Shown here piece by piece: positions 9,923-21,582 of a DNA stretch of 64,000 nt (position 1 is its first letter; every line of letters starts with the position of its first letter). The translations under genes were made by a program, and so were the position numbers. The stretch is from NCBI GenBank assembly GCA_963753125.1, contig CAVWAU010000006.1, positions 77,413-141,412 on the forward strand. The letters run 5' to 3'. The stretch comes from an uncultured Chloroflexia bacterium (GTDB lineage: Bacteria > Chloroflexota > Limnocylindria > QHBO01). Below the pieces are notes generated by a model. It did no database searches and had not been told where the DNA came from. It saw nothing but the letters and a program-made list of their open reading frames with translations.

Positions 9923-11437
9923 TCACCACAGCGGCCCGAAGCCGGTCAGCCCGGCGCCGTTGACGGCCTCGACGATGCGGTCGACCGGCACCTCGATCAT
10001 CTCCAGCACCGGCCCCGGGTAGACCCCCAGCGCCACTACGAGCACGATGAGCGGCGAGAGCGACACCCACTCGCCGCGGCTCATGTCGCGCAGCGACGGC
10101 CAGAATCGGCGCATCCAGTCCGACGGCACCGTGAAGAAGGCGCGCTGGAACATCCACAGCATGTAGACCGCGCTGAGGATGACGGCGGTCATCGCCACGG
10201 CCGCCACCCAGCCGTTGTAGGCGAACGCGCCCAGCACGACCAGGAACTCACCGATGAACCCCGAGAGGCCGGGCAGCCCTATAGAGGCGAACGTGAAGAG
10301 GCCGAACATGGCGGCGTACGCAGGGACGCGCGCGTTGAGCCCGCCCATGTGCGCGATCTCGCGGTCGTGGGTCTGCTCGTAGATGATCCCGACCAGGAGG
10401 AACAGCGCCCCGGTCGTGATGCCGTGGCTGATCATCTGGAAGATCGCGCCCTGCAGGCCCTGCACGTTGAAGACGAAGGCGCCGAGCATCACGAAGCCCA
10501 TGTGACTGACGCTCGAGTAGGCGACCAGCTTCTTCATGTCCGGCTGCACCATCGCCACCAGCGCGCCGTAGATGATCGCGATGAGCGCCAGACCGATGAT
10601 GACCGGCGCGAACGTCGCCGACGCGTCGGGCAGCAGCGGTAGGTTATAGCGCAGGAACCCATAGCCGCCGAGCTTCAGAAGAACTCCCGCCAGGATGATC
10701 GAGCCGGCCGTTGGCGCCTCGACGTGGGCATCGGGCAGCCACGTGTGGAGCGGCCACATCGGCACCTTGATGGCGAACGCCAGGAAGAACGCGATGAAGG
10801 CGAGCGCCTGGAGCGTATCGGTGTAGGCGAAGCCTCTCAGTGCCTCGTAGCTGAACGTGAACTCGTTGCCGGCCGACGCGTACGCGATCGCCACCGCAAG
10901 GATCGCGACGAGCATCAGCAGCGAGCCGACCAGGGTGTAGATGACGAACTTCACCGTCGCATAGATGCGGGCCGGGCCGCCCCAGATGCCGATCATGAAG
11001 TACATCGGGAAGAGGCTGACTTCCCAGAAGACGTAGAACAGGAACAGGTCGAGGCTGACGAAGACGCCGAGCATGCCGACCATGAGCAGCAGCATCACGG
11101 CGTAGTAGGCCTTGATCTTGGTCTGGATCGGCTCCCAGCTGTAGACGATGGCCACCACGCTCAGCAGCGTGGTCAGGATCACGAGCACGACGCTGATGCC
11201 GTCGACGCCGAGCGTGTATCGCATCCCGAAGAAGTCGATCCACGGGAGGTCCTCGCGGAACTGGAACTCGGCGCCGCTCGGGTCGTAGCCGAGCAGCGCA
11301 AGGCTGAGCCCGAAGCTGATCAGCGCGGTGACGAGCGCGATCCAGCGGATGGCGGTGTGGGCGGTGCCCGGGACGAACAGCAGGAGGAGCGCGCCGAGCG
11401 CCGGCACGAAGACGATGGCGGAGAGGAGGGGCACCAC
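9923..11437 (-). CDS. nuoM: NADH-quinone oxidoreductase subunit M
   Basis: GTG 11437 overlaps the nuoL stop (TAGTG); FAIKVPMWPLHTWLPDAHVEAPT, LLKLGGYG, KKLVAYSSVSHMG. The ORF-track extension to 13258 is a shadow. Confidence 0.97.
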   Translation of the reverse strand: MVPLLSAIVFVPALGALLLLFVPGTAHTAIRWIALVTALISFGLSLALLGYDPSGAEFQFREDLPWIDFFGMRYTLGVDGISVVLVILTTLLSVVAIVYSWEPIQTKIKAYYAVMLLLMVGMLGVFVSLDLFLFYVFWEVSLFPMYFMIGIWGGPARIYATVKFVIYTLVGSLLMLVAILAVAIAYASAGNEFTFSYEALRGFAYTDTLQALAFIAFFLAFAIKVPMWPLHTWLPDAHVEAPTAGSIILAGVLLKLGGYGFLRYNLPLLPDASATFAPVIIGLALIAIIYGALVAMVQPDMKKLVAYSSVSHMGFVMLGAFVFNVQGLQGAIFQMISHGITTGALFLLVGIIYEQTHDREIAHMGGLNARVPAYAAMFGLFTFASIGLPGLSGFIGEFLVVLGAFAYNGWVAAVAMTAVILSAVYMLWMFQRAFFTVPSDWMRRFWPSLRDMSRGEWVSLSPLIVLVVALGVYPGPVLEMIEVPVDRIVEAVNGAGLTGFGPLW

Positions 11438-13638
11438 TAGCGCACCACCGTCGCGTACACGAGCAGCACGATCGCCAGCCCAGCGGCGATCCCCAGGCCG
11501 TAGTTCTCGACGTGCCCGGTCTGCACCTTGCGCAACCCGCCGCCGATCGTTCGCGCCAGCCAGCCGGTGCCGTTGACGATGCCGTCGATGACCCGAACGT
11601 CGAACCACCACAGTGCGTTCGCGACGATCACGCCGCCACGGGCGAAGACGAGCTGGTAGACGTCGTCGATGTAGTACTTGTTCAGGCTGGCGCGGTACAT
11701 CCCCGGCCCGAGACCCAGCGGGAAGCGCTCGATGAAGCGCGCCGGCAGCCCTGGTTCGCGAACGTAGAACCGATGTGCGAGCCAGACGCCGGCGACGGCC
11801 ACGAGCGCGCCCGCGGTGAGCAGCACCCCGCCGCTTCCGAGGAGCTGGAACTCGGGGTGATCGCCGTCGGCGATCGACCCGGGCAGGACGCCGGCATGCG
11901 CCTCCTCGGCGACGAGGAAGACCTCGTGGAGCCATTCGTGGATGAGCCCGGCCTCCGGCGGGATGCCGAGCAGCAGACCGATGAAGATCGTCGGCACGGC
12001 GAGGATGGCCAGCGGCGCGACCATGGTCGGGGCGCTCTCGTGGACGTGGTCCCACACCGCGCGCGGCCCGCGCCACTCGCCCCAGAAGGTCATGAAGATC
12101 ATCCGGAACGTGTAGAAGGCGGTCATCAGCGCGACGACCACGCCGACGATGTAGAAGACGAGATAGCCGCGGTTGAAGGCCTCGGCCAGGATCTCGTCCT
12201 TGCTGAAGAAGCCGGAGAAGATCGGGATGCCGGCGAGGGCCAGCGAGCCGATGACCATCGTGACGTAGGTCCAGCGCATCCGCGCGCGCAGGTTGCCCAT
12301 GTAGCGCATGTCCTGCTCGCCTCCGGCGCCGTGGATCACGGAGCCGGAGCCCATGAACAGCAGCCCCTTGAAGAAGCCATGGCTGACGAGGTGGAAGATC
12401 GCCGATGCGAACGCCCCGATCCCGAGCGCCATGAACATGTACGCCAGCTGGCTGACCGTCGAGTAGGCGAGGACCTTCTTGATGTCGTTCTGGGTCAGCG
12501 CGATGGCCGCGGCGAGGACGGCGGTGAAGGTGCCGATGATGGCGACCACCAACATGGCGGTGGGCGCCTCGGCGAAGATCGGGTTGGCGCGGGCGACCAT
12601 GTAGACGCCGGCGTTGACCATCGTGGCGGCGTGGATCAGCGCCGATACAGGGGTCGGGCCCTCCATGGCGTCCGGAAGCCAGACGTGGAGCGGGAACTGG
12701 GCGGACTTGCCGACGGCGCCGGCGAAGAGGAGGAGGGCGATGATCGTGACGGTGCCCTCGTCGAGCGTGCCGATCCGCTCGAAGACCTCGTGGAAGCTCA
12801 GCGTCCCGAGGTTGACCCAGATCATCATGATCCCGAGGCCGAACCCGAAGTCGCCGATCCGGTTGACGACGAAGGCCTTCTTGGCCGCCCCGGCCGCCGA
12901 GGGCTTCTTGTACCAGAAGCCGATGAGCGCGTAGCTGCACAGGCCGACCGCCTCCCAGCCGACGTACAGCATCAGGAAGTTGTCGCCCAGGATCAGCAGC
13001 AGCATGCTGAACATGAACAGGTTCAGGTAGGCGAAGAAGCGCCACAAGCCCCGGTCGCCGTCCATGTAGCCGATCGAGTAGACGTGGACGAGGAAGCCGA
13101 CCGTGCTGACGACGAGCAGCAGCATCGCGGTCAGCGAGTCCACCAGGAAGCTGACCTCGATGTTGAACGAGCCAGAGGCGATCCACTCGTAGACGGTCAC
13201 CTCGTGCTCGTTGCCGCCGAAGACAACGTCGGCGAAGACGACCATCGAGATGACCCACGTCAGGCCGACGAGCACGGTCGGGACGATCCAGGACCGATAG
13301 CGCGGCCGCTCCGCGCCCGGCGAAACGTGCCCGGCCTGGCCGAGCCCGTCGTTCAGCTCCGCCGGGATGACGCCGGCAGCGCCCTCGGCGTTGGAGAGGT
13401 CGTCGGAGTGGCCGGCATGCGGGCTCGTCGCGGCCTGCTCCTCCTCGGTCGGGACGGTGCGGAAGGCCGAGTCGTCGACCGGGCCGTGGCCGTGGGCGTC
13501 ATCGGTCTCGTGCTCTGCATCGTGGTCTTCGTGGCCGTGAACGGGGACGCGGTCGAGCCGCGGGCCGACGAGGACGGCGAAGAGGAACCCGATCAGGGGC
13601 AGCGCCGGGATGAGGGCGATCAGGAGGTCGATGGACAT
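11437..13638 (-). CDS. nuoL: NADH-quinone oxidoreductase subunit L with a long His/acidic insert after TM1
   Basis: GKSAQFPLHVWLPDAMEGPTPVSALIHAATMV, KKVLAYSTVSQL, HGFFKGLLF, SKDEIL. Confidence 0.97.
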   Translation of the reverse strand: MSIDLLIALIPALPLIGFLFAVLVGPRLDRVPVHGHEDHDAEHETDDAHGHGPVDDSAFRTVPTEEEQAATSPHAGHSDDLSNAEGAAGVIPAELNDGLGQAGHVSPGAERPRYRSWIVPTVLVGLTWVISMVVFADVVFGGNEHEVTVYEWIASGSFNIEVSFLVDSLTAMLLLVVSTVGFLVHVYSIGYMDGDRGLWRFFAYLNLFMFSMLLLILGDNFLMLYVGWEAVGLCSYALIGFWYKKPSAAGAAKKAFVVNRIGDFGFGLGIMMIWVNLGTLSFHEVFERIGTLDEGTVTIIALLLFAGAVGKSAQFPLHVWLPDAMEGPTPVSALIHAATMVNAGVYMVARANPIFAEAPTAMLVVAIIGTFTAVLAAAIALTQNDIKKVLAYSTVSQLAYMFMALGIGAFASAIFHLVSHGFFKGLLFMGSGSVIHGAGGEQDMRYMGNLRARMRWTYVTMVIGSLALAGIPIFSGFFSKDEILAEAFNRGYLVFYIVGVVVALMTAFYTFRMIFMTFWGEWRGPRAVWDHVHESAPTMVAPLAILAVPTIFIGLLLGIPPEAGLIHEWLHEVFLVAEEAHAGVLPGSIADGDHPEFQLLGSGGVLLTAGALVAVAGVWLAHRFYVREPGLPARFIERFPLGLGPGMYRASLNKYYIDDVYQLVFARGGVIVANALWWFDVRVIDGIVNGTGWLARTIGGGLRKVQTGHVENYGLGIAAGLAIVLLVYATVVR

Positions 13639-13957: not shown

Positions 13958-14467
13958 TCAGTTCGCCCGCTCGTCTTCTTCCGGCCGGCGGGCCAGGTAG
14001 ATGGCACCGATGATCGCCACCAGCAGCAGCAGGCTGATGATCTCGAACGGCAGCGCGAACTCGGTGAAGATGGCGGTGGCGATGTCCTCGACCGCAGCGG
14101 AGGCCGCCTGGGCGGCGGCGGGCCAATCGGTCTGGATGACGGCCCAGCCGACGAGACCGATGATGGCCAGCGAGATGACCGCGGCGATCGGCACCTGCCG
14201 ATGGAACGGCGCCGGCAGGTTCGCGTCACCGGCCTGGGTGAGCATGATCGCGAAGAGGATCAGGACGCTGATCGCGCCGAGGTAGATCAGCACCTGCGCG
14301 GCGGCCACGATCGGCGCGCCGAGCAGCGCATACATGCCGGCGAGCGACCCGAAACAGACCATCATCGCCACGGCCGAGTGGATGATGTTGCGCAGCGTGA
14401 CGACGGCGAGTCCGGCTCCCACGACACCGATGGCGAGCAGGAAGAAGAGGACGCTGGAGATGTCCAG
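13958..14467 (-). CDS. nuoJ: NADH-quinone oxidoreductase subunit J (probable CTG start)
   Basis: NIIHSA, QVLIYLGAISVLILFAIML, F.LPFEIISLLLLVAIIGA; TM1 needs the CTG at 14467 (SD GGGAG 9 nt upstream). Confidence 0.93.
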   Translation of the reverse strand: MDISSVLFFLLAIGVVGAGLAVVTLRNIIHSAVAMMVCFGSLAGMYALLGAPIVAAAQVLIYLGAISVLILFAIMLTQAGDANLPAPFHRQVPIAAVISLAIIGLVGWAVIQTDWPAAAQAASAAVEDIATAIFTEFALPFEIISLLLLVAIIGAIYLARRPEEDERAN

Positions 14468-14524
14468 GGTCGAGGGCTCCCTTCGAATTCGAGCGCACCG
14501 TGGCCCGCCCGGGGGCCGCGCTCG

Positions 14525-14530
14525 ATTCTA
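14525..14530 (-). promoter_or_regulatory. -10 element (TAGAAT) of a separate nuoJKLMN promoter
   Basis: TAGAAT followed by a GC hairpin (CGAGCGC...GCGCTCG), then the SD and nuoJ start. Confidence 0.55.
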
Positions 14531-14600
14531 GCGTAGCGATCATTGAGGCTGCGGTGCCAGCACGGATGAAGGTTTCCGTGCGCTCGATTGTCATGTCATC

Positions 14601-15168
14601 GTGACGCAGCGAGCTGAGGTGGATGCCGTGCCGGGTGCGGAGGTGCTGAGCGCCGGGGAATCGAGTCCTCGTGCGATCGCCTTCGTGGAGCTCGCCGAAC
14701 GTCACCTGGACGCGAGCTATCGCCTGGCGCGAGCCATCCTGCACGATCCCGCTGATGCGGAGGACGCCACCCATGACGCAGTCGTCACGGCGTGGCGACA
14801 GTTCTCGACCCTGCGCGACGTTGCGCACTTCGAGGGCTGGTTCCACCGCATCCTCGTGAACACCTGCCGCAACCGGTTGGCCCGCGCCGGGCGCTGGCAC
14901 ACCCAGGACCAGCCGCCCGACTGGGCAGGCCGCGGGTGACGCGTTCGGGCAGGCCGATGACCGGGACCTCATCGGGGCCGCGCTGCGGCAGCTCACTCCA
15001 GACCACCGGGTCGTGGTCGCACTGCGGTTCTATCGAGATCTGAGCGTGGACCAGATCGCCCGGCAGCTGGGGGTTCGTCCGGGCACCGTCCACTCCCGCC
15101 TGCACTATGCGATGAAGCGGCTGGCGGCGTTGATCGACGCGGCCGATGCCAAGAGGACACTCCGATGA
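14601..15168 (+). CDS. ECF sigma factor; apparent +1 frameshift near 14925
   Basis: Region 2 (DAEDATHDAVVTAWR...FEGWFHRILVNTCRN) in 14601-14939; region 4 (LRQLTPDHRVVVALRFYRDLSVDQIARQLGVRPGTVHSRLHYA) in the next frame, ending TGA 15168. Confidence 0.85.
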
Positions 15169-16124
15169 TTGATGACGATCTCGAGCGCCGACTGCGGGCG
15201 TGGTACCAGGCCGAGATCGGCACCCGGGAGGCGGCTCCGGCATCGCTGTATGCCAGCCTGGCGGAGATCGCTGACACGGCGCCGGCACCGGCACGGCCGC
15301 ATCGCCAATCGGCGCGGCTTCGTTCTTGCTGGTGGCCGCAGCACTCGTCCTGTCGCTGCTGGTCGGCGGCGCCATTGCCATCGGCTCCGGGCTGTTGACG
15401 TTGCCCTGGGCGGTCGACGAGGCGCCTCGCGCCGTCGATGCCCTGACTTGGACCCCATCGAGCCTCGAGCAGGACTGGCCGGTGCCAATTCGCGCCGAGC
15501 CGGTCGGATGACGTGGTCGTCGTGCCGCTCGTCGACGCCGAACGCGGCGAATACATAGATCCCAGTGGAGACATCGGACCGACCGGGCCTCTTTGGCTCG
15601 ACATCGAGCACGTGCGCCTCTCGGGAGGCCAACCGGCCATCACCCGACACGGGGTGATCTGGTCTGTCGACGTCGAGCTCGCCGCCGAGATGCCGTCGCG
15701 ACGGGATCTCCGCGAGGAGTATCTCGGCGCCGATATCCCGTCGCGGGTGGCTGATCCCCGCGAGGAATGGATCGCGTACGGACTCGTCCTGGACACCAAC
15801 GCCGACGGTGTGCCCGACGTGAGGATCGGGATGGACAACATGCCCGAACCGGGCCACCGCGCGTGGCGCACGGAGCTCGACACCGGTCGAACCATGTCGG
15901 CTGCCGGGGCGCCATACGGCCTCGTTGGTGATCGCTATGTGGACACGTTCTTCCCGGGCGAGACATCGAGCAATGTCCCGGAGTTCAGCGTGGGCTTGCG
16001 CGAGGGGGAGCCAGCGTTCCGCTTCTACGTGTGGGCATCGCTGATCGAGGACGGCCGGGTCGTGGCGACGGATTACGCCCCCGATATCGGCTGGCTGGAG
16101 CCGGCGCCCGGGGCGGACCAGTGA
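15165..16124 (+). pseudogene. putative anti-sigma/single-TM protein, broken by about 3 frameshifts (decay or sequence error)
   Basis: ATGA-coupled to the sigma gene; MIDDDLERRLRAWY N-terminus, RRGFVL/LVAAALVLSLLVGG TM and extracellular domain lie in three frames. Confidence 0.55.
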
Positions 16125-16903
16125 ACCCGCGGATCGGCCATGAGTCAGCCGCGCGGAGACGGCTGCGGTCAATGCCCCTGGGTGCGACAATTCACGCGGC
16201 GGTGGCGCTGATTCTGGTCGCCGGCTGCGCCAGCGTCGCCCCGACGTCCGCCTCGCCGAGCGGCCCGACGAGTTCGGCCTCGAACGCACCACGCTCCACG
16301 CCTGGTGCCGCCGCTGGCGCTCGTCACCTCCCCGGCAGCGGCCCGATTGAGCCTGGCACGGTACTTCATCGCCGAAGGGCCCGTGGACGCCGGCGACCTT
16401 CTCGTTCACGATGCCCGCCGGCTGGGTCGCGGAGAACGGGGGCAGACGATCTCGAAGCATGCGAACGAATCGGGTCGCGAGGTCGGCTGGAGCGTGTCGA
16501 TCGTCGATCGGCTCTTCGCCGACCCGTGCGGCCCGAACGAGACGATCGACATCGGGCCGACCGCCGACGACCTCGCGGCCGCGCTGCGCGCATTGCCGGG
16601 CCCGGACGTAGCGGCGCCAATGGAGGTCACGATCGGCGGGCGATCCTGGAAGGTCATCGAGGTGACTGTCTCGGCCGACGTCGACGTCGAGCAGTGCGAC
16701 CCGCCGATCGGGCTCCAGATCTGGCTCGACCGAAGCGGCAACAAGTACTTCCTGCGCGGGCCATGAATCCGTGGCGCGGGTCTACACCGTCGATGTCGAC
16801 GGGCGCCCGCTTCGTCGTGGTGGCGAACCATCGCTCAACGTCGGCGCCCGAGGACGTCGCCGAGATGGAGGAGATCCTCGCCTCGATCGAGTTCGAGCCA
16901 TAA
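16121..16903 (+). pseudogene. lipoprotein (LVAGC lipobox), broken by about 5 frameshifts
   Basis: Coherent protein stitched across frames: EPGT/YFIAEGP/WTPATFSFTMPAGWVAENG/QTISKH...KYFLRG/HESVARVYTVDVDG/ARFVVV...ASIEFEP. Confidence 0.55.
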
Positions 16904-16913
16904 GGTTCCCGGT

Positions 16914-16932
16914 GCTGAGGCGGCAACTCAGC
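16914..16932. terminator. hairpin between convergent genes
   Basis: GCTGAG-GCGGCAA-CTCAGC; no U-tract. Confidence 0.3.
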
Positions 16933-16976
16933 GGCGCGCGGCCGTCCAGCCCGTCAGGCCCGCCAGGCGCATCGGT

Positions 16977-19368
16977 CTAGCGGGTGGGTCGCTCCCGGTC
17001 GGACATCTCGAGGATGTCGAGCATGGGCAGGTCGCGCTGGTACTCGCTGAACTCGAACTCGGGGCCGCAGCGCAGGGCGTCGTACGGGCAGGCATCGGCG
17101 CAGATGCCGCAGAAGATGCAGCGCGACACGTCGAGCTGGTAGGTCTCGAGGATGCGCGGGCGCGGCATGAGTGCGCCGACCGGGCATGTCTCGGCGCATC
17201 GGCCACAGGAGACGCACGGCGTCTCGTTGAGGGAGACGAAGTCGGCGGTGGTGACGAGGGAGTCGAAGCCCTTGCCGATGAAGTCGTAGCAGCCGGCGCC
17301 GACGATGTCCTTGCAGACCTGGGCGCATCGGCCGCAGTCGATGCAGCGCGAGTAGTCGCGCAGGATGAACGAGTGCGTCTCGTCGCGGCCGTAGCCGTGG
17401 TTGACGCCGACGTACGGGTTGTCCTGGATCGAGCGCTCGTCGATCGCCATGTTCAGCGTCGTCTCGTACTCGATCGCCGCCTCGCGCAGGTCGCAGTGGC
17501 CGATCGCCTCGCACGTGCACTGCAGGCAGCGTGACGCCTCGGCCATGGCCTGGTCGCCGGTGTAGCCGAACTCGTACTCGTTGAAGTTCGTGCTGCGCTC
17601 CTCGGGGCCGAGCTTGCCCATGATCGCCTTGGGCTCCTTCACGTCATCGGTGAAGGGGACGATGGTCAGGAAGTTCGGCTGCGGCTCGGTGACGATGCGC
17701 CGGACCTGCGGGTCGTCGAGGTCGTGGCCGCGCAGCCAGTAATCCATGGCGTACGAGGCGCGGCGGCCCTCGCCGATGGCCTCGACCACGGTGGCGGCAC
17801 CGGTCCGGACGTCGCCGGAGGCGAAGACCTTGGGGACGTCGGTGCGGAAGATGTGCTCCTCCGACTCGAGCGTGCCGCGCCGCGAGACGACGAGCTTCGA
17901 GCGGATCTCCTCCGGCTCCGAGTCGATCCACGACAGCTCCGGTCCCTGGCCGATGGCGCCCAGCACGGTGTCGCACTCGACGATGAACTCGGTGCCCTCC
18001 ATCGGCTCCGGCCGGCGGCGGCCCTGCTCGTCGGGCGCGCCGAGCTTCATGCGCTGGAACTCGACGCCGGTGACCTTGTCCTTCTCGTCGGTGACGATCC
18101 GGACCGGGGCGGCCTGGAAGATGAGCCGCGCGCCCTCCTCGATGGCCTCGTGCGCCTCGTCGGCGGCGGGCATGTCCTTGAGGTCGCGGCGGTAGACGAG
18201 GGTCACCTCGGCCGCGCCCTGGCGCACCGAGGTCCGGGTGCAGTCGATGGCGGTGAAGCCGCCACCGATGACGACCACCCGCGCGCCCTTCAGCCGCGGC
18301 ACCGGGATGCCGCGGGTCGAGTTGTAGAGGTTCTCGAGCGCGTTGACGGTGCCCTGGGCGAACTCGCCGGGGATGCCGAGCTCGTTGGGCTTGTAGCAGC
18401 CGATGCCGATGTAGATCGCGTCGTAGTCGTCGATGATGTCGCCGATGTGGAAGTCGCGCCCGAGCCGCATGTTCGGCTTGAAGGTCGCGCCGAGCTCCCA
18501 GACGTGGTTGAGCTCGCGGTCCATCCAGCCCTTCGGCAGGCGGTACTGCGGGATGCCGTAGCGCAGCATGCCGCCCTGCTCGGGATCGGCCTCGAAGACG
18601 TCGCACTGGTGGCCGCGCAGCTGGAGGTAGTACGCGACGCTCATCCCGGCCGGGCCGGCACCGATGATCGCCACGCGGCGACCGGTCGGCGGCTCCTTCG
18701 GCCACGGGATCGGCGCCGGGGCATCCACCTCCAGGACGCGGTCGGCGCAGTACCGATGCGAGTCGCGGATGGCGATCGCGGTGTCGACCTCCTCGCGCCG
18801 GCAGTGGGTCTCGCACGGCGCGGGGCAGACGCGGCCGAGGATGGCCGGGAACGGCAGCGAGCGCTTCAGGATGCGCGTCGCCTCCTCCCAGTTGCCGAGG
18901 GTGTTCTGCTTCAGGTAGCCGGGGATGTCGACCCGGGTCGGGCACTTGAACTGGCACGGCGGCAGGCAGTAGGCGTCGTGGTCGCTGAAGATGAGCTCGA
19001 GGACCATGCGCCGGTTCTCGATGACGCGGTCGGAGTGGGTGGTGATGACCATCCCCTCTTCGATCGTCGTCCCGCACGAGATCGGGGTGTCGTCGCGCCC
19101 CTCGACCTCGACGGCGCAGATGCGGCACGCCCCGTACGGCGCCAGCTTCGGCTCGTAGCACAGCGTCGGGATCTCGATGCCGAGCACCCGGCAGGCCTGG
19201 AGGATGGTCTGTCCCTCCTCGGCCTCGACCTGCTGCCCGTTGATCGTGACCGTGATCTTCTGCGTGCCGGGCACCATCGGCCAGATCGGCGTGTAGTCGG
19301 TGACCTGCCCGTCGCCGCGTGCCGTTGCCGTTGCCGGTCGGGTGGCCGTTCGTCGTGCCGAAGCTCAT
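16977..19368 (-). CDS. NuoG-like [2Fe-2S]/[4Fe-4S] protein with inserted GltD/NfnB-type FAD/NADPH domain and C-terminal NuoI half (StnC-like::NuoI-C)
   Basis: C-x10-C-x2-C-x13-C, HDAYCLPPCQFKCP, GRVCPAPCETHC, GAGPAG, GGGFTA..YRR, SGD, EASRCLQCTC..C, two CxxCxxC motifs, then CIFCGICADACP. Unbroken ORF 16977-19277; the real start is probably ATG 19368 with a +1 frameshift near 19318. Confidence 0.88.
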
Positions 19369-19374
19369 CGGTCC

Positions 19375-20740
19375 CTACTCTAGCCCGGCCGGCTCGAGGC
19401 CGGGCAGCGGCTCCCGGAGCGGTGGCACCTCGGCGACGCGACAGGCGCCGGCCAGGCAGACGCCACGCTCCGCATGGGCGCGGTACTCGTCGGGGAAGCG
19501 CTCCATGGTGGTGAGGATCGGGTTCGGCGCCAGGCTCTCGAGCTTGCAGAGTGCGGTGTCGCTCATCTTGCTCGACAGCTCGCGCAGCATGACGAAGTCG
19601 TTCGGACGCGGGGTGGCGGCCAGGATGCGGTCGAGCGCCTCCACCAGCCGCTTCGTGCCGATGCGGCACGGCACGGCCTTGCCGCAGGCCTCTCTTGCGC
19701 TGAAGTCGACGAAGAAGCGCGCCGAGTCGACCATGCACGTAGCGGCATCGGTGACCAGGACCGATCCGGAGCCGATGATCGCGCCGGCCTTCTCGAGCGG
19801 CTCGTAGTCGTAGGCCAGGGTGAGCCGGCCGACGTCGATGGCGCCACCGCCGGGGCCGCCGACGAAGACCGCCTTCGTCGAGCCGGTCCCGCCGCCGGCC
19901 ATGCCGACGAGGTCGAGCAGGCTCGTGCCCAGCGGCACCTCGAGCAGCCCGGGCTCCATCACGCGGCCCATGACCGTCACGAGCTTCGTGCCCTTGCTCG
20001 CGTCGCTCCCAACCGAGGCGAACGCCTCCGGGGAGTGCGAGATGATCCAGGCCACGTGCGCCAGGGTCTCCGCGTTCTGGACGACCGTCGGTGCGCCCCA
20101 CAGGCCGGTCGTGGCCGGGTACGGCGGCCGGATCGCCGGCATGCCGCGATCGCCGGCCAGCGCGTGCAGCAGCGCGGTCTCCTCGCCGGCGACGTAGGCG
20201 CCGGAGCCCTCCCATACGCGACAGCTGGATGCTGGTGTCGGTGCCGAGCACCAGGTAGCCGGCCAGGTGCGCCTCGGTCGTCTCGCCGACCGCGGTTCGC
20301 AGCCGGTCGATGGCGTCGGTCCACTCGCGGCGCACGGCGACGATTGCCTCGCTCGCGCCCACCGCGTACGCCGCGATGAGGAGGCCCTCGAGGACGAGGT
20401 GCGGGTTGCCCTCGGCCAGCGCCCGGTCGCCGAGGGAGCTGGGATCGGCGCCCATGAGGTTGGCGACGACGATCCTGCGGTCGGTTTCGATGCCGCGTGC
20501 GACGCGCCACTTCTCGGCGGTCGGGAAGCCGGAGCCGCCGCGGCCGCGCAGGCCGGCTGCCTCGATCTCGTCGATCACGCCCTCCGGCGAGAGATGGGTG
20601 ACGGCGCGCTTCAGGCCGCCGTAGCCGCCATGCTCGCGGTAGCTGGCCAGGCTGCTCGGGTCGATCCGCCCGATGTCGGTCAGCACCCGGCGCTCGCCGG
20701 CGCCGAGGATGCGGATCTGGGGCGAGATCGTGCCGGCCAT
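19375..20740 (-). CDS. nuoF: NuoF/HydB-like flavoprotein subunit, degenerate; apparent +1 frameshift near 20220
   Basis: GLRGRGGSGFPTAEKW, GSGAYVAGEETAL, RPPYP, QNAETLA, IGSGSVLV, EACGKAVPCRIG, ALCKL; halves are in the 18911-20740 and 19375-20142 frames. Confidence 0.88.
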
Positions 20741-21582
20741 CAGCTGCGGGTGCTCGCCGTGGCGCGTGTCGCGGCGGCAACCCGCTCGCTGACGATGTGG
20801 CGAGCCTTGGCGGCATCGACCGGCCCGTAGACGAGGGTGTCGACGCGAATGGCCGGGCTGATCGCGCCCGCCCCGACGTCAGTCGCCAGCTCCAGGCTCC
20901 ACTGACCGTCGGGCGTCTCCTCGCCTGCGCGGATGCCGAGCTCCTCCTCGATGGCGGCGCGCACCGCCGGCCCGCCGGCGAAGCGGCACGCGGCGCAGTC
21001 GCAGACGGTGACGACGTGGCCGGCGGCGGGCAGAAGGCGGAAGCCGCCGAGGCCGGCGGCGCCGAAGACCTGCGCCCAGTGGATGCTCATCCGGTCGCTC
21101 ACCCGGCGCAGCGCGCGCTCGGGCAGGTAGCCGTATCGGTCCTCGATGGCCCGGAAGATGGCGACCAGCGCCTCCGGACGGCCGCCGAAGGCGTCGATCG
21201 TCTCGTCCACCCACGGCGTGTCGATCGCCTCGTCCCAGCGCGCCGGGTTGCGCATCGGTCTCGCCGGCTGGCCGGCGCGGCGGTATGCGTTGGCGTCCTT
21301 GCGCTCGTCGTAGATCTCCGGCATCCCGTAGCGGATCCGGTTGCCCCGCGAGTCGAAGCCGCTCATGTCGATGGCCTCGACCGGGCAGACCTGCGCGCAC
21401 TGGAAGCAGACCTCGCACTTGTGCTCGCCGAACGGGTCGTAGATGAGGTCGAGCCGGCCGCGCCATCGGTCGGGGATCGGCGGGCGCTCCTCGGGATACT
21501 GCCGCGTCACCTTCGGCGCGAAGAAGTTGCGGAAGGTGGTGACCATGCCCTTGGCGATGCCGACGCCCGGAAACGCCATCAA
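20740..21582 (-). CDS. fusion of NuoI N-terminal half and NuoE-like domain
   Basis: GMVTTFRNFFAPKVTRQYPEE...RWRGRL...CEVCFQCAQVCPVEAI (NuoI-N, one motif only), then RYGYLPERALRRVS...VCDCAAC...LGIRAGEETPDGQWSLE (NuoE). Confidence 0.88.
   Translation of the reverse strand: MMAFPGVGIAKGMVTTFRNFFAPKVTRQYPEERPPIPDRWRGRLDLIYDPFGEHKCEVCFQCAQVCPVEAIDMSGFDSRGNRIRYGMPEIYDERKDANAYRRAGQPARPMRNPARWDEAIDTPWVDETIDAFGGRPEALVAIFRAIEDRYGYLPERALRRVSDRMSIHWAQVFGAAGLGGFRLLPAAGHVVTVCDCAACRFAGGPAVRAAIEEELGIRAGEETPDGQWSLELATDVGAGAISPAIRVDTLVYGPVDAAKARHIVSERVAAATRATASTRS

Follow-up and report, generated by a model that had tools for sequence, protein, structure and literature searches.

The 64,000-nucleotide stretch of DNA analysed here (the window; positions 77,413 to 141,412 of contig CAVWAU010000006.1, assembly GCA_963753125.1) comes from an uncultured bacterium whose relatives are Candidatus Limnocylindria of the phylum Chloroflexota, and it carries on its minus strand a nuo operon in which the gene at 19375-20740 encodes a NuoF-like protein. 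This protein is a domain-stripped B subunit of NfnABC/StnABC-type (Bfu) ancestry, closer to the B subunits of Bfu enzymes than to NuoF of respiratory complex I. The best explanation of its features, to which we give about an even chance, is that it is a de-bifurcated, still redox-active flavoprotein subunit with an N3 cluster that would be held by three Cys and one Glu, or would be a [3Fe-4S] cluster. A first-pass annotation, made from the letters of the window, had described the protein as HydB-type and as having lost residues of both the NADH site and the N3 cluster; the motifs on which it relied (ANLMGADPSSLGDR, CGKAVPC, TCMVD..RFF and HAERGVCLAGAC) are present letter for letter on the minus strand.

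Ancestry and domain composition

Summed over the two frame pieces in which the gene is assembled, the protein matches the Pfam families Complex1_51K (83 bits), SLBB (33 bits) and NADH_4Fe-4S (84 bits); PF01512, PF10531 and PF10589 are thus all above their gathering thresholds, which makes it a member of the NuoF/51-kDa superfamily. Compared by HMMER with all chains of the PDB, it was most similar to NfnB (9bov_B, 6e-125), followed by StnB (8oh5_B), the HydB subunits of NiFe- and FeFe-hydrogenases and Thermococcus NfnB, and Thermus Nqo1 reached only 2e-78. An AlphaFold2 model built on an intact orthologue, 92% identical to the source protein, had a predicted local distance difference test score (pLDDT) of 88.8 and a predicted template modelling score (pTM) of 0.90; Foldseek again ranked 9bov_B first (template modelling score, TM, 0.90; root-mean-square deviation 1.7 A), with respiratory NuoF at TM 0.83-0.86. 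In phylogenetic analysis the protein nests among sequences of the CN[AG]DEGDP type.

The ligands of the Bfu-type zinc site (B2) are all retained within 19441..19737 of the minus strand: Cys335 (19735-19737), His422 (19474-19476), Cys428 (19456-19458) and Cys433 (19441-19443), the same set of three Cys and one His as in the B2 site of NfnB (PMC11829005). Among 59 orthologues, Cys335, His422 and Cys428 are invariant, and residue 433 is Cys in 55 and His in the other four (L016, L020 and two others, reading CLAGYHPPL for CLAGACR), which is a second ligand substitution in this protein. Both TCMVDSARFF and HAERGVCLAGAC (H-x5-C-x4-C) are present, and VAGEETAL stands at the place of (I/V)CGEETAL of the Bfu enzymes. 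The HydB/StnB-type assignment is therefore right as a statement of ancestry, given the ranking by sequence and fold and the kept zinc ligands, while several features that define Bfu B subunits were tested for and are absent.

The extra domains of HydB are absent, as had been noted from the sequence. The Pfam scan of the NuoF-like protein found no N-terminal 2Fe-2S domain and no C-terminal ferredoxin (Fer4) domain, and the extent of the alignment (query 15-436 on NfnB 102-525) agrees: the protein begins about 15 residues before the core, lacking the thioredoxin-like N-terminal domain (B5), and continues for only about 20 residues past the zinc site, lacking the C-terminal 2x[4Fe-4S] domain (B3 and B4). 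The domains regarded as hallmarks of the bifurcating module by the authors who described StnABC are thus missing, and deletion of one cluster in StnABC abolishes bifurcation (PMC10482914).

The closest known protein in both sequence and fold is NfnB (Caldicellulosiruptor saccharolyticus 9BOV/9BP5 chain B; Thermococcus sibiricus 9N5U), at 46% identity. The two share Rossmann/FMN (flavin mononucleotide), ubiquitin-like (SLBB) and four-helix-bundle domains, the B2 zinc ligands, the NADH contacts (loop 1 Phe, Lys, Glu, a loop-2 aromatic residue and loop 3), and their two partners, of which one is NuoE-like and the other is a large subunit that contains GltD. Unlike NfnB, the NuoF-like protein has no B5, B3 or B4, has LMGADPSSLG in place of ADEGDPGAFM, has Ala for the second Cys of B1 (Cys2) with Glu at +3 of the fourth Cys, has a partner without a [2Fe-2S] cluster, and has its gene placed within a nuo operon, where the two parts of a split nuoI flank it. 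StnB of Sporomusa ovata (8OH5) and HydB of T. maritima (7P5H), T. kivui (8A6T) and A. woodii (7Q4V) have the same core fold and zinc-stabilised C-terminal linker. Respiratory NuoF/Nqo1/NDUFV1 (Thermus 2FUG chain 1, Aquifex 6HL2, E. coli 7AWT) is of the same size, with the same three domains and no further ones, and its gene too belongs to a complex I operon that includes NuoE- and NuoG-type partners; the FMN-N3-N1b wiring is presumably the same. The resemblance is nevertheless distant (E=2e-78; 32-37% identity), the CNADE(S/G)EPG loop is not conserved, N3 has three Cys rather than four, the NuoE-like partner lacks the N1a cluster found in respiratory NuoE, and the Bfu zinc site is absent from the respiratory sequences matched in the cluster-representative comparison.

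The flavin loop and the FMN/NADH pocket

The 5' part of the gene (residues 1-174; 20219..20740, minus strand; Complex1_51K E=2.6e-23) encodes the glycine-rich FMN loop (LRGRGGSGFP, 20522-20551), followed by K77-W78 and by the altered loop ANLMGADPSSLGDR (residues 93-106; 20423-20464). The 3' part (residues 175-454; 19375..20217, minus strand; SLBB, and NADH_4Fe-4S at 7.5e-24) encodes GSGAYVAGEETAL (20170-20208) and loop 3 (AGAIIGSGS) as well as two domains, SLBB and the four-helix-bundle cluster domain. In the place where Bfu enzymes have CNADEGDPGAFMDR, the protein has ANLMGADPSSLGDR, so that the flavin loop CNADEGDPG is rebuilt as ANLMGADPS; nor does it have the NADE(S/G/M)EPG loop of respiratory NuoF, the first residue of which (Cys or Val) is variable. 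Thirteen of the 14 codons of ANLMGADPSSLGDR and all seven of CGKAVPC end in G or C, in keeping with a G+C content at third codon positions (GC3) of 0.94 across the open reading frame (ORF), and the substitutions are fixed in 59 of 59 orthologues within Candidatus Limnocylindria, far more than chance would give; the view that they are not errors is upheld.

To determine how much of the pocket has changed, 59 sequences of the clade, 74 of the sister family, seven deep orthologues and 137 canonical NuoF/HydB representatives were placed in a single profile alignment. Residues are compared with Aquifex NuoF by the numbering of the published alignment, and contacts are taken from PMC6560083 (Supplementary Table 2) and PMC11829005. 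The losses from the CNADE loop are confined to the first Cys, which is dispensable, and the equivalents of Aquifex D94 and E95. Conservation reaches 85% or more at 77 positions of the canonical sequences, and the clade keeps 66 of these; the 11 changed positions include E97G (Aquifex E95), G101S/T, Y135A (Aquifex Y133), E195A/S/Q, N221Q/H, V223A/G, G236S, S351A, C355A and G401E, and the replacement of the D94 equivalent by Met falls just under the 85% cut-off. The equivalent of Aquifex Y138 is Trp.

In Aquifex NuoEF, NADH is contacted directly by K76, E185, the backbone of E97, and G67/G68, and through water by E95, D103, E184 and G394 (PMC6560083); in Caldicellulosiruptor NfnB the contacts are loop 1 with F159, K164, E274, F294 and loop 3 (PMC11829005). 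The first-sphere contacts on these lists are kept in the NuoF-like protein, namely G67, G68, F71, K76, the E97 equivalent, D103, Y180, E184, E185, the equivalents of K202 and F205, and loop 3, nearly all of them invariant or conservatively replaced; among all the listed contacts, E95 alone is lost. Mean entropy is 0.28 bits at 36 FMN/NADH contact positions and 0.69 elsewhere (permutation p about 1e-4), and the sister family behaves likewise. Eight residues (K77, G68, G69, E186, E187, N94, D99 and T225) are invariant in both the A-type clade and the T-type sister family, and T188 is nearly so. D99 corresponds to D186 of StnB, the key Asp of a loop (182-191) that lies over FMN and moves upon NAD+ binding (PMC10482914), and it is kept within the altered loop. 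The claim that the NADH site has been lost was thus overstated.

The simplest reading of the altered loop is a coupled remodelling of the interface between the flavin and the N1a cluster, rather than loss of the NADH site. In Aquifex NuoEF the flavin loop is water-coupled to a Cys ligand of the adjacent N1a cluster, and N1a is gone from the present family. The NuoE-like domain of the partner protein (20740..21582, minus strand) keeps C-x4-C and has lost the second Cys pair (it reads DVGAG there), with which the N1a/C1 [2Fe-2S] cluster beside the altered loop has disappeared. This second Cys pair is missing in every lineage examined. As Cys2 of B1 is Ala besides, the B1-FMN-C1 flavobicluster of Bfu enzymes, with a four-Cys B1 and a [2Fe-2S] C1, is not present.

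A further difference concerns residue 399 (19543-19545), which directly follows the fourth N3 Cys at the position of Aquifex G394, the backbone of which is connected through water with the phosphate of NADH. The clade has Lys or Arg at residue 399 and the sister family has Asp (then His), placing opposite charges beside the same invariant Glu.

Ligands of the N3 cluster

The N3/B1 motif of the protein is EACGKAVPC (residues 350-358; 19666..19692, minus strand), compared with ESCGKCxxC in Bfu enzymes: Cys352 and Cys358 are kept and Ala355 (19675-19677) occupies the position of the second ligand. The fourth ligand, Cys398, is followed by K-L-Glu401 (19537..19548, minus strand). The cluster site is thus C-x2-A-x2-C plus Cys398, instead of the C-x2-C-x2-C plus distal Cys of respiratory NuoF or the four-Cys B1 of Bfu enzymes. 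The position of Cys2 is Ala in all 59 clade members; in the sister family it is Thr in 67, Ser in six and Ala in one, and in two deeper lineages it is Cys. Canonical motifs in orthologues of the same operon type had been named in advance as what would speak against the first-pass description: the CNADE loop is canonical in none of them, deep lineages included, and the N3 motif C-x2-C-x2-C is canonical in two (L094 and L102). Since these two lineages keep it, the N3 change is, by this comparison, younger than the operon type.

Loss of Cys2 is strictly associated with a second change. Across the superfamily, the residue at +3 of the fourth Cys is a Gly with 96% conservation, and in 281 sequences the two positions covary with zero exceptions: the 138 sequences without Cys2 have Glu at +3, and the 143 with Cys2 have Gly, Ala or Cys there. 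Cys352, Cys358, Cys398 and Glu401 are invariant in 133 sequences, while residue 355 drifts among small residues. Codons at the Cys2 position (TGC, TCG, ACG/GCG) fit a route in which Cys gave way to Ser, and Ser to Thr or Ala, and L094 (Cys/Gly) has GGG at +3, one step from GAG. In the maximum-likelihood (ML) tree the Cys2/Gly lineage (L094 and P0035) is nested within the Cys2-less Glu group (ultrafast bootstrap 100), which implies two coupled events. A single-origin topology is 28 log-likelihood units worse, a difference of marginal significance (approximately unbiased test p=0.047; Kishino-Hasegawa and Shimodaira-Hasegawa tests 0.06). The idea that the covariation reflects shared ancestry only is opposed by the ML tree and is not fully rejected, a single origin being just marginally worse.

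An altered N3 cluster is likely from these residues; the first-pass annotation was correct that Cys2 is Ala, and the other three Cys are invariant. We propose that N3 is a [4Fe-4S] cluster held by three Cys and one Glu, or a [3Fe-4S] cluster with an adjacent carboxylate. In the AlphaFold2 model, Cys398 lies directly before a short helix (399-403) that holds Glu401. Spacing of this kind at the N-terminus of a helix could bring the two side chains together. The middle Cys is lost from the C-x2-X-x2-C centres of succinate dehydrogenase and fumarate reductase (SdhB/FrdB), and we know of no description for N3/B1 of a replacement ligand from another segment (the Cys4 loop). Non-Cys ligands occur in related enzymes: in StnC/NfnA a Lys ligates the cluster next to FAD (flavin adenine dinucleotide), and a Glu does so in NfnB of NfnSL (PMC10482914). 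The NuoF-like protein resembles these sites with 3Cys+Lys or 3Cys+Glu, and [3Fe-4S] sites, in that there would be one non-Cys ligand or a three-iron cluster, and differs from them in that the substitute ligand would come from the Cys4 loop. A more specific proposal, which we advance tentatively, is that a natural N3 ligand migration from Cys2 to Glu took place once, perhaps twice, giving a 3Cys+1Glu [4Fe-4S] cluster as part of the conversion of an anaerobic Nfn/Stn module to an oxygen-compatible, non-bifurcating input module, through which one complex I may take electrons from NADH at FMN and from NADPH at the FAD of GltD.

Distribution and selection

The same operon architecture is present in about 70 species-level loci, with 68-92% identity of the NuoF-like protein, and the same operon type occurs in other families of the class Limnocylindria, with 41-47% identity. 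No second NuoF homologue was found in genomes of the genus. A search across 1.84 billion cluster representatives showed the clade to be isolated, with one full-length representative at 72% identity, four fragments at 69-77%, and the next match at 49% or less; among the 150 best representatives, only members of this clade had Ala at the second N3 Cys. Almost all relatives of P0013 that the genome collection contains belong to Limnocylindria/Chloroflexota, at identities of 47% or less. In public databases these proteins are labelled plainly as NADH:ubiquinone oxidoreductase subunit F, and a search of one collection of papers found no description of this NuoF-like family.

The ratio of nonsynonymous to synonymous substitution rates (dN/dS, Nei-Gojobori) of the NuoF-like gene is 0.25, compared with 0.12-0.23 for the other nuo genes (0.22-0.23 for NuoL/NuoM and 0.12 for the GltD fusion). 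With the substitutions conserved in all 59 orthologues, the protein is under purifying selection, somewhat relaxed, which agrees with what the first-pass annotation had proposed to check.

Partner subunits and electron transfer

Downstream of the NuoF-like gene, a 766-residue fusion protein (16977..19277, minus strand) combines an N1b/A1 [2Fe-2S] domain, a GltD domain with FAD and NAD(P)H sites, a 2x[4Fe-4S] domain and the C-terminal half of NuoI; upstream, the N-terminal half of NuoI is fused to the NuoE-like domain. The four N1b Cys of the GltD fusion (C40, C51, C54 and C68) are 100% conserved in 47 clade members and seven deep orthologues. Because their sole known role is to link N3 with N4, this conservation favours a branch that is still wired. 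In NfnABC the electron path is FAD-A7-A6-A3-A2-A1-B1-FMN, with A2-A4-A5 a dead end whose productive counterpart is in formate dehydrogenases. By analogy, the A2-A4-A5 branch would map to the complex I route towards NuoI, so that the side branch here would run into the fused NuoI half and FMN-B1-A1 would form a side arm of the present complex.

From this material a sequence of events can be proposed. A Bfu-type module, with this protein as its B subunit, would have been built into respiratory complex I in the class Candidatus Limnocylindria, and the parts used for bifurcation (two terminal domains, thioredoxin-like of HydB type at the N-terminus and 2x[4Fe-4S] ferredoxin at the C-terminus, and the [2Fe-2S] cluster of the NuoE-like partner) would have been removed. 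The loop facing the lost partner cluster would have been rebuilt from CNADEGDPG to ANLMGADPS, with the FMN/NAD(H) pocket and the zinc site retained, and N3/B1 would have been re-ligated, Cys2 being given up and the Glu at +3 from the fourth Cys taking over. NADH would then reduce FMN, and electrons would pass via the re-ligated N3 to the conserved N1b [2Fe-2S] cluster of the GltD fusion, and onward through the split NuoI and N2 to quinone, alongside the electrons that NAD(P)H would deliver to the FAD of GltD. Such entry of NADPH through the GltD domain, put forward in the first-pass annotation, is compatible with the data; the NuoF-like subunit does not make it the exclusive route.

Several observations weigh against a redox-active subunit. 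Replacements affect the equivalents of Aquifex D94 and E95, both acidic and in the loop over the flavin, and of Y133, together with the first Asn in NNVET, and FMN affinity or NADH turnover could be lost despite the other kept contacts. In the NAY-type lineage (L102, P0013 and P0025) the Asn pair of the FMN loop is degraded to S-S, N-S or H-S. The dN/dS of the NuoF-like gene is the highest in the operon, and between families the NuoF-like protein (41-47% identity) and the NuoI-N::NuoE-like fusion (28-46%) are the most diverged, compared with 48-59% for the GltD fusion. The N3 site could, by analogy, be a mononuclear Zn site rather than an Fe-S cluster, because 3Cys+Glu is the ligand set of the B5 site of Caldicellulosiruptor NfnB, where a 3Cys+1Glu Zn site replaced a [2Fe-2S] cluster (PMC11829005). 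A type II NADH dehydrogenase (NDH-2) is encoded in 22 of 26 genomes of the genus, making the cell independent of the NuoF-like protein for NADH oxidation, and the equivalent branch of the Nfn and Stn enzymes is an output that reduces NAD+, not an input (PMC11829005, PMC10482914).

Most of these points would be expected if the protein were a structural pseudo-enzyme, in which the NuoF-like and NuoE-like proteins hold the GltD fusion on the split NuoI, N3 is a Zn (3Cys+Glu) or redox-dead site, there is no turnover of FMN or NADH, and all electrons enter from NAD(P)H at the GltD FAD. This explanation, the chief competitor of the preferred one although we consider it unlikely, also gains from the alteration of the CNADE loop in all members of the operon type, from the loss of the partner [2Fe-2S] cluster and, in some lineages, of the whole NuoE thioredoxin-like part, and from the NfnABC structure, in which FAD reaches the A2-A4-A5 branch (the counterpart of the NuoI route) without the B subunit; NDH-2 can deal with NADH. 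It does not readily account for the fact that E186/E187 (the adenosine-ribose ligands), K77, the Gly-rich loop, N222 and T225 vary little or not at all among more than 130 sequences, in which the other parts of the protein have drifted. There would be no redox grounds for keeping the N1b [2Fe-2S] ligands so strictly, and C-x5-C with a distant Cys suits a cubane and offers no obvious mononuclear site. A live redox arm is favoured because the N1b Cys, the pocket and the 3Cys+Glu set are all conserved; the suggestion in the first-pass annotation that the subunit is becoming structural is less probable.

Another explanation is that the protein is a nucleotide sensor or transhydrogenase side arm, which binds FMN and NAD(H) and senses or equilibrates NADH/NAD+, with electrons passing from NADPH to NAD+ via the shared cluster chain. 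The site of the parent enzymes does reduce NAD+ with electrons from NADPH (PMC11829005, PMC10482914), the pocket residues are conserved, and the complex holds both the nucleotide site of GltD and that of the NuoF-like protein. Quinone is a far better acceptor, which makes a backward flow of electrons to NAD+ thermodynamically unfavourable. The analysis identified no regulatory element, and the sequence does not distinguish this role from simple NADH oxidation; we regard it as very improbable. The preferred explanation is still a de-bifurcated subunit through which NADH would deliver electrons to N1b.

Two further observations concern the partners and the other NADH routes. In three loci (L095:8695-9336, L098:7445-8101 and L102:8257-8970) the NuoI-N::NuoE-like protein ends after the helical part of NuoE, the thioredoxin-like cluster-binding part being deleted. 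The source genome encodes an NDH-2 (G000:C4:593436-593606; NDH2_C above the Pfam cut-off), a non-pumping NADH route. An argument from physiological necessity, that the cell has no other NADH dehydrogenase, was dropped in view of the 22 of 26 genomes of the genus that have NDH-2.

The frame break and the surrounding locus

The assembly does contain the frameshift implied by the first-pass annotation: one additional base, C at 20218 (TCG-C-GTA, minus strand), between Ser174 and Val175, shifts the frame of the NuoF-like gene. In all orthologues the junction (...TSIQLS-VWEGSGAY...) is read in one frame, and the extra base is found in the source genome only. We consider it very probably a long-read assembly error, because it is unique to this genome, because a second operon copy in the same genome and the operons of sister metagenome-assembled genomes (MAGs) are also frameshifted, and because codon usage is undisturbed before and after it. 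That second copy, nuoA-N of the same type, lies outside the window on contig C2 (G000, C2:44188-61228); nearly every gene of it is frameshifted, with about 85-94% amino acid identity in clean segments, and it looks like a low-coverage contig of a related strain binned into the MAG. The source MAG is of 1.9 Mb in six contigs, with 70% GC, and among its relatives are many soil MAGs of the Nanopore "MFD" kind. In the genus, further Nanopore MAGs each have a different single frameshift, in the GltD fusion, nuoL, nuoD, nuoH or the NuoF-like gene (L025, which is G010:C7, at about 11465-11640, and also L024, L040, L056, L066 and L082), a pattern that fits sporadic assembly indels rather than biology.

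That the gene is a true pseudogene in the source genome, by a recent one-nucleotide insertion, is improbable in our estimation. The assembly as given does carry the frameshift, and it is the sole frame break in the approximately 21 kb of the window compared with close relatives. Calibration of the window's indel error rate against the closest relative, G010, was ambiguous, G010 being itself a Nanopore MAG with its own frame breaks (for example in the GltD fusion) and stop-to-stop ORFs spanning gene borders. No second lesion was seen in the NuoF-like gene, GC3 is 0.94 on both sides of the break, and orthologues are intact in all species loci examined; the MAG is a six-contig assembly of long-read style that also has a heavily frameshifted operon copy, and the unique single frameshifts of its sister MAGs affect other essential nuo genes. 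Programmed frameshifting was ruled out, since more than 58 orthologues carry the junction in a single frame and the extra base is unique to the source genome.

The operon is in the order nuoA, nuoB, nuoC, nuoD, nuoH, NuoI-N::NuoE-like fusion, NuoF-like gene, GltD fusion, a variable insert, nuoJ, nuoK, nuoL, an extra antiporter-like gene, nuoM and nuoN; the position of the NuoF-like gene, 3' of nuoH and within a split nuoI, is unusual. The insert between the GltD/NuoI-C fusion and nuoJ (14422-16977, 2.5 kb) contains plus-strand ORFs, one of which encodes an extracytoplasmic function (ECF)-type sigma-70 region-2 protein (14601-14939, plus strand; Pfam 1.4e-13). Among close relatives this gap varies from about 120 bp to about 4.8 kb, marking a variable spot within the operon. 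The extra antiporter-like gene between nuoL and nuoM (9923-11542, minus strand; Proton_antipo_M, 3e-77) is present in deep orthologues also, and the complex thus has four antiporter-like subunits.

Biological implications

The plain NuoF label hides a large, class-wide family in abundant Chloroflexota of soil and freshwater. The family may be a stepwise record of how a bifurcating module was stripped for respiration, with the C1 cluster lost first, the flavin loop rebuilt, and N3 re-ligated thereafter. The covariation of Cys with Glu constitutes a testable prediction on Fe-S ligation, and hence on the tuning of potential or oxygen stability, in the input chain of complex I. Whether the FMN site is active would decide between a complex I that takes electrons from NADPH only and one that takes them from both NADH and NADPH, which bears on the pyridine-nucleotide balance of these bacteria.

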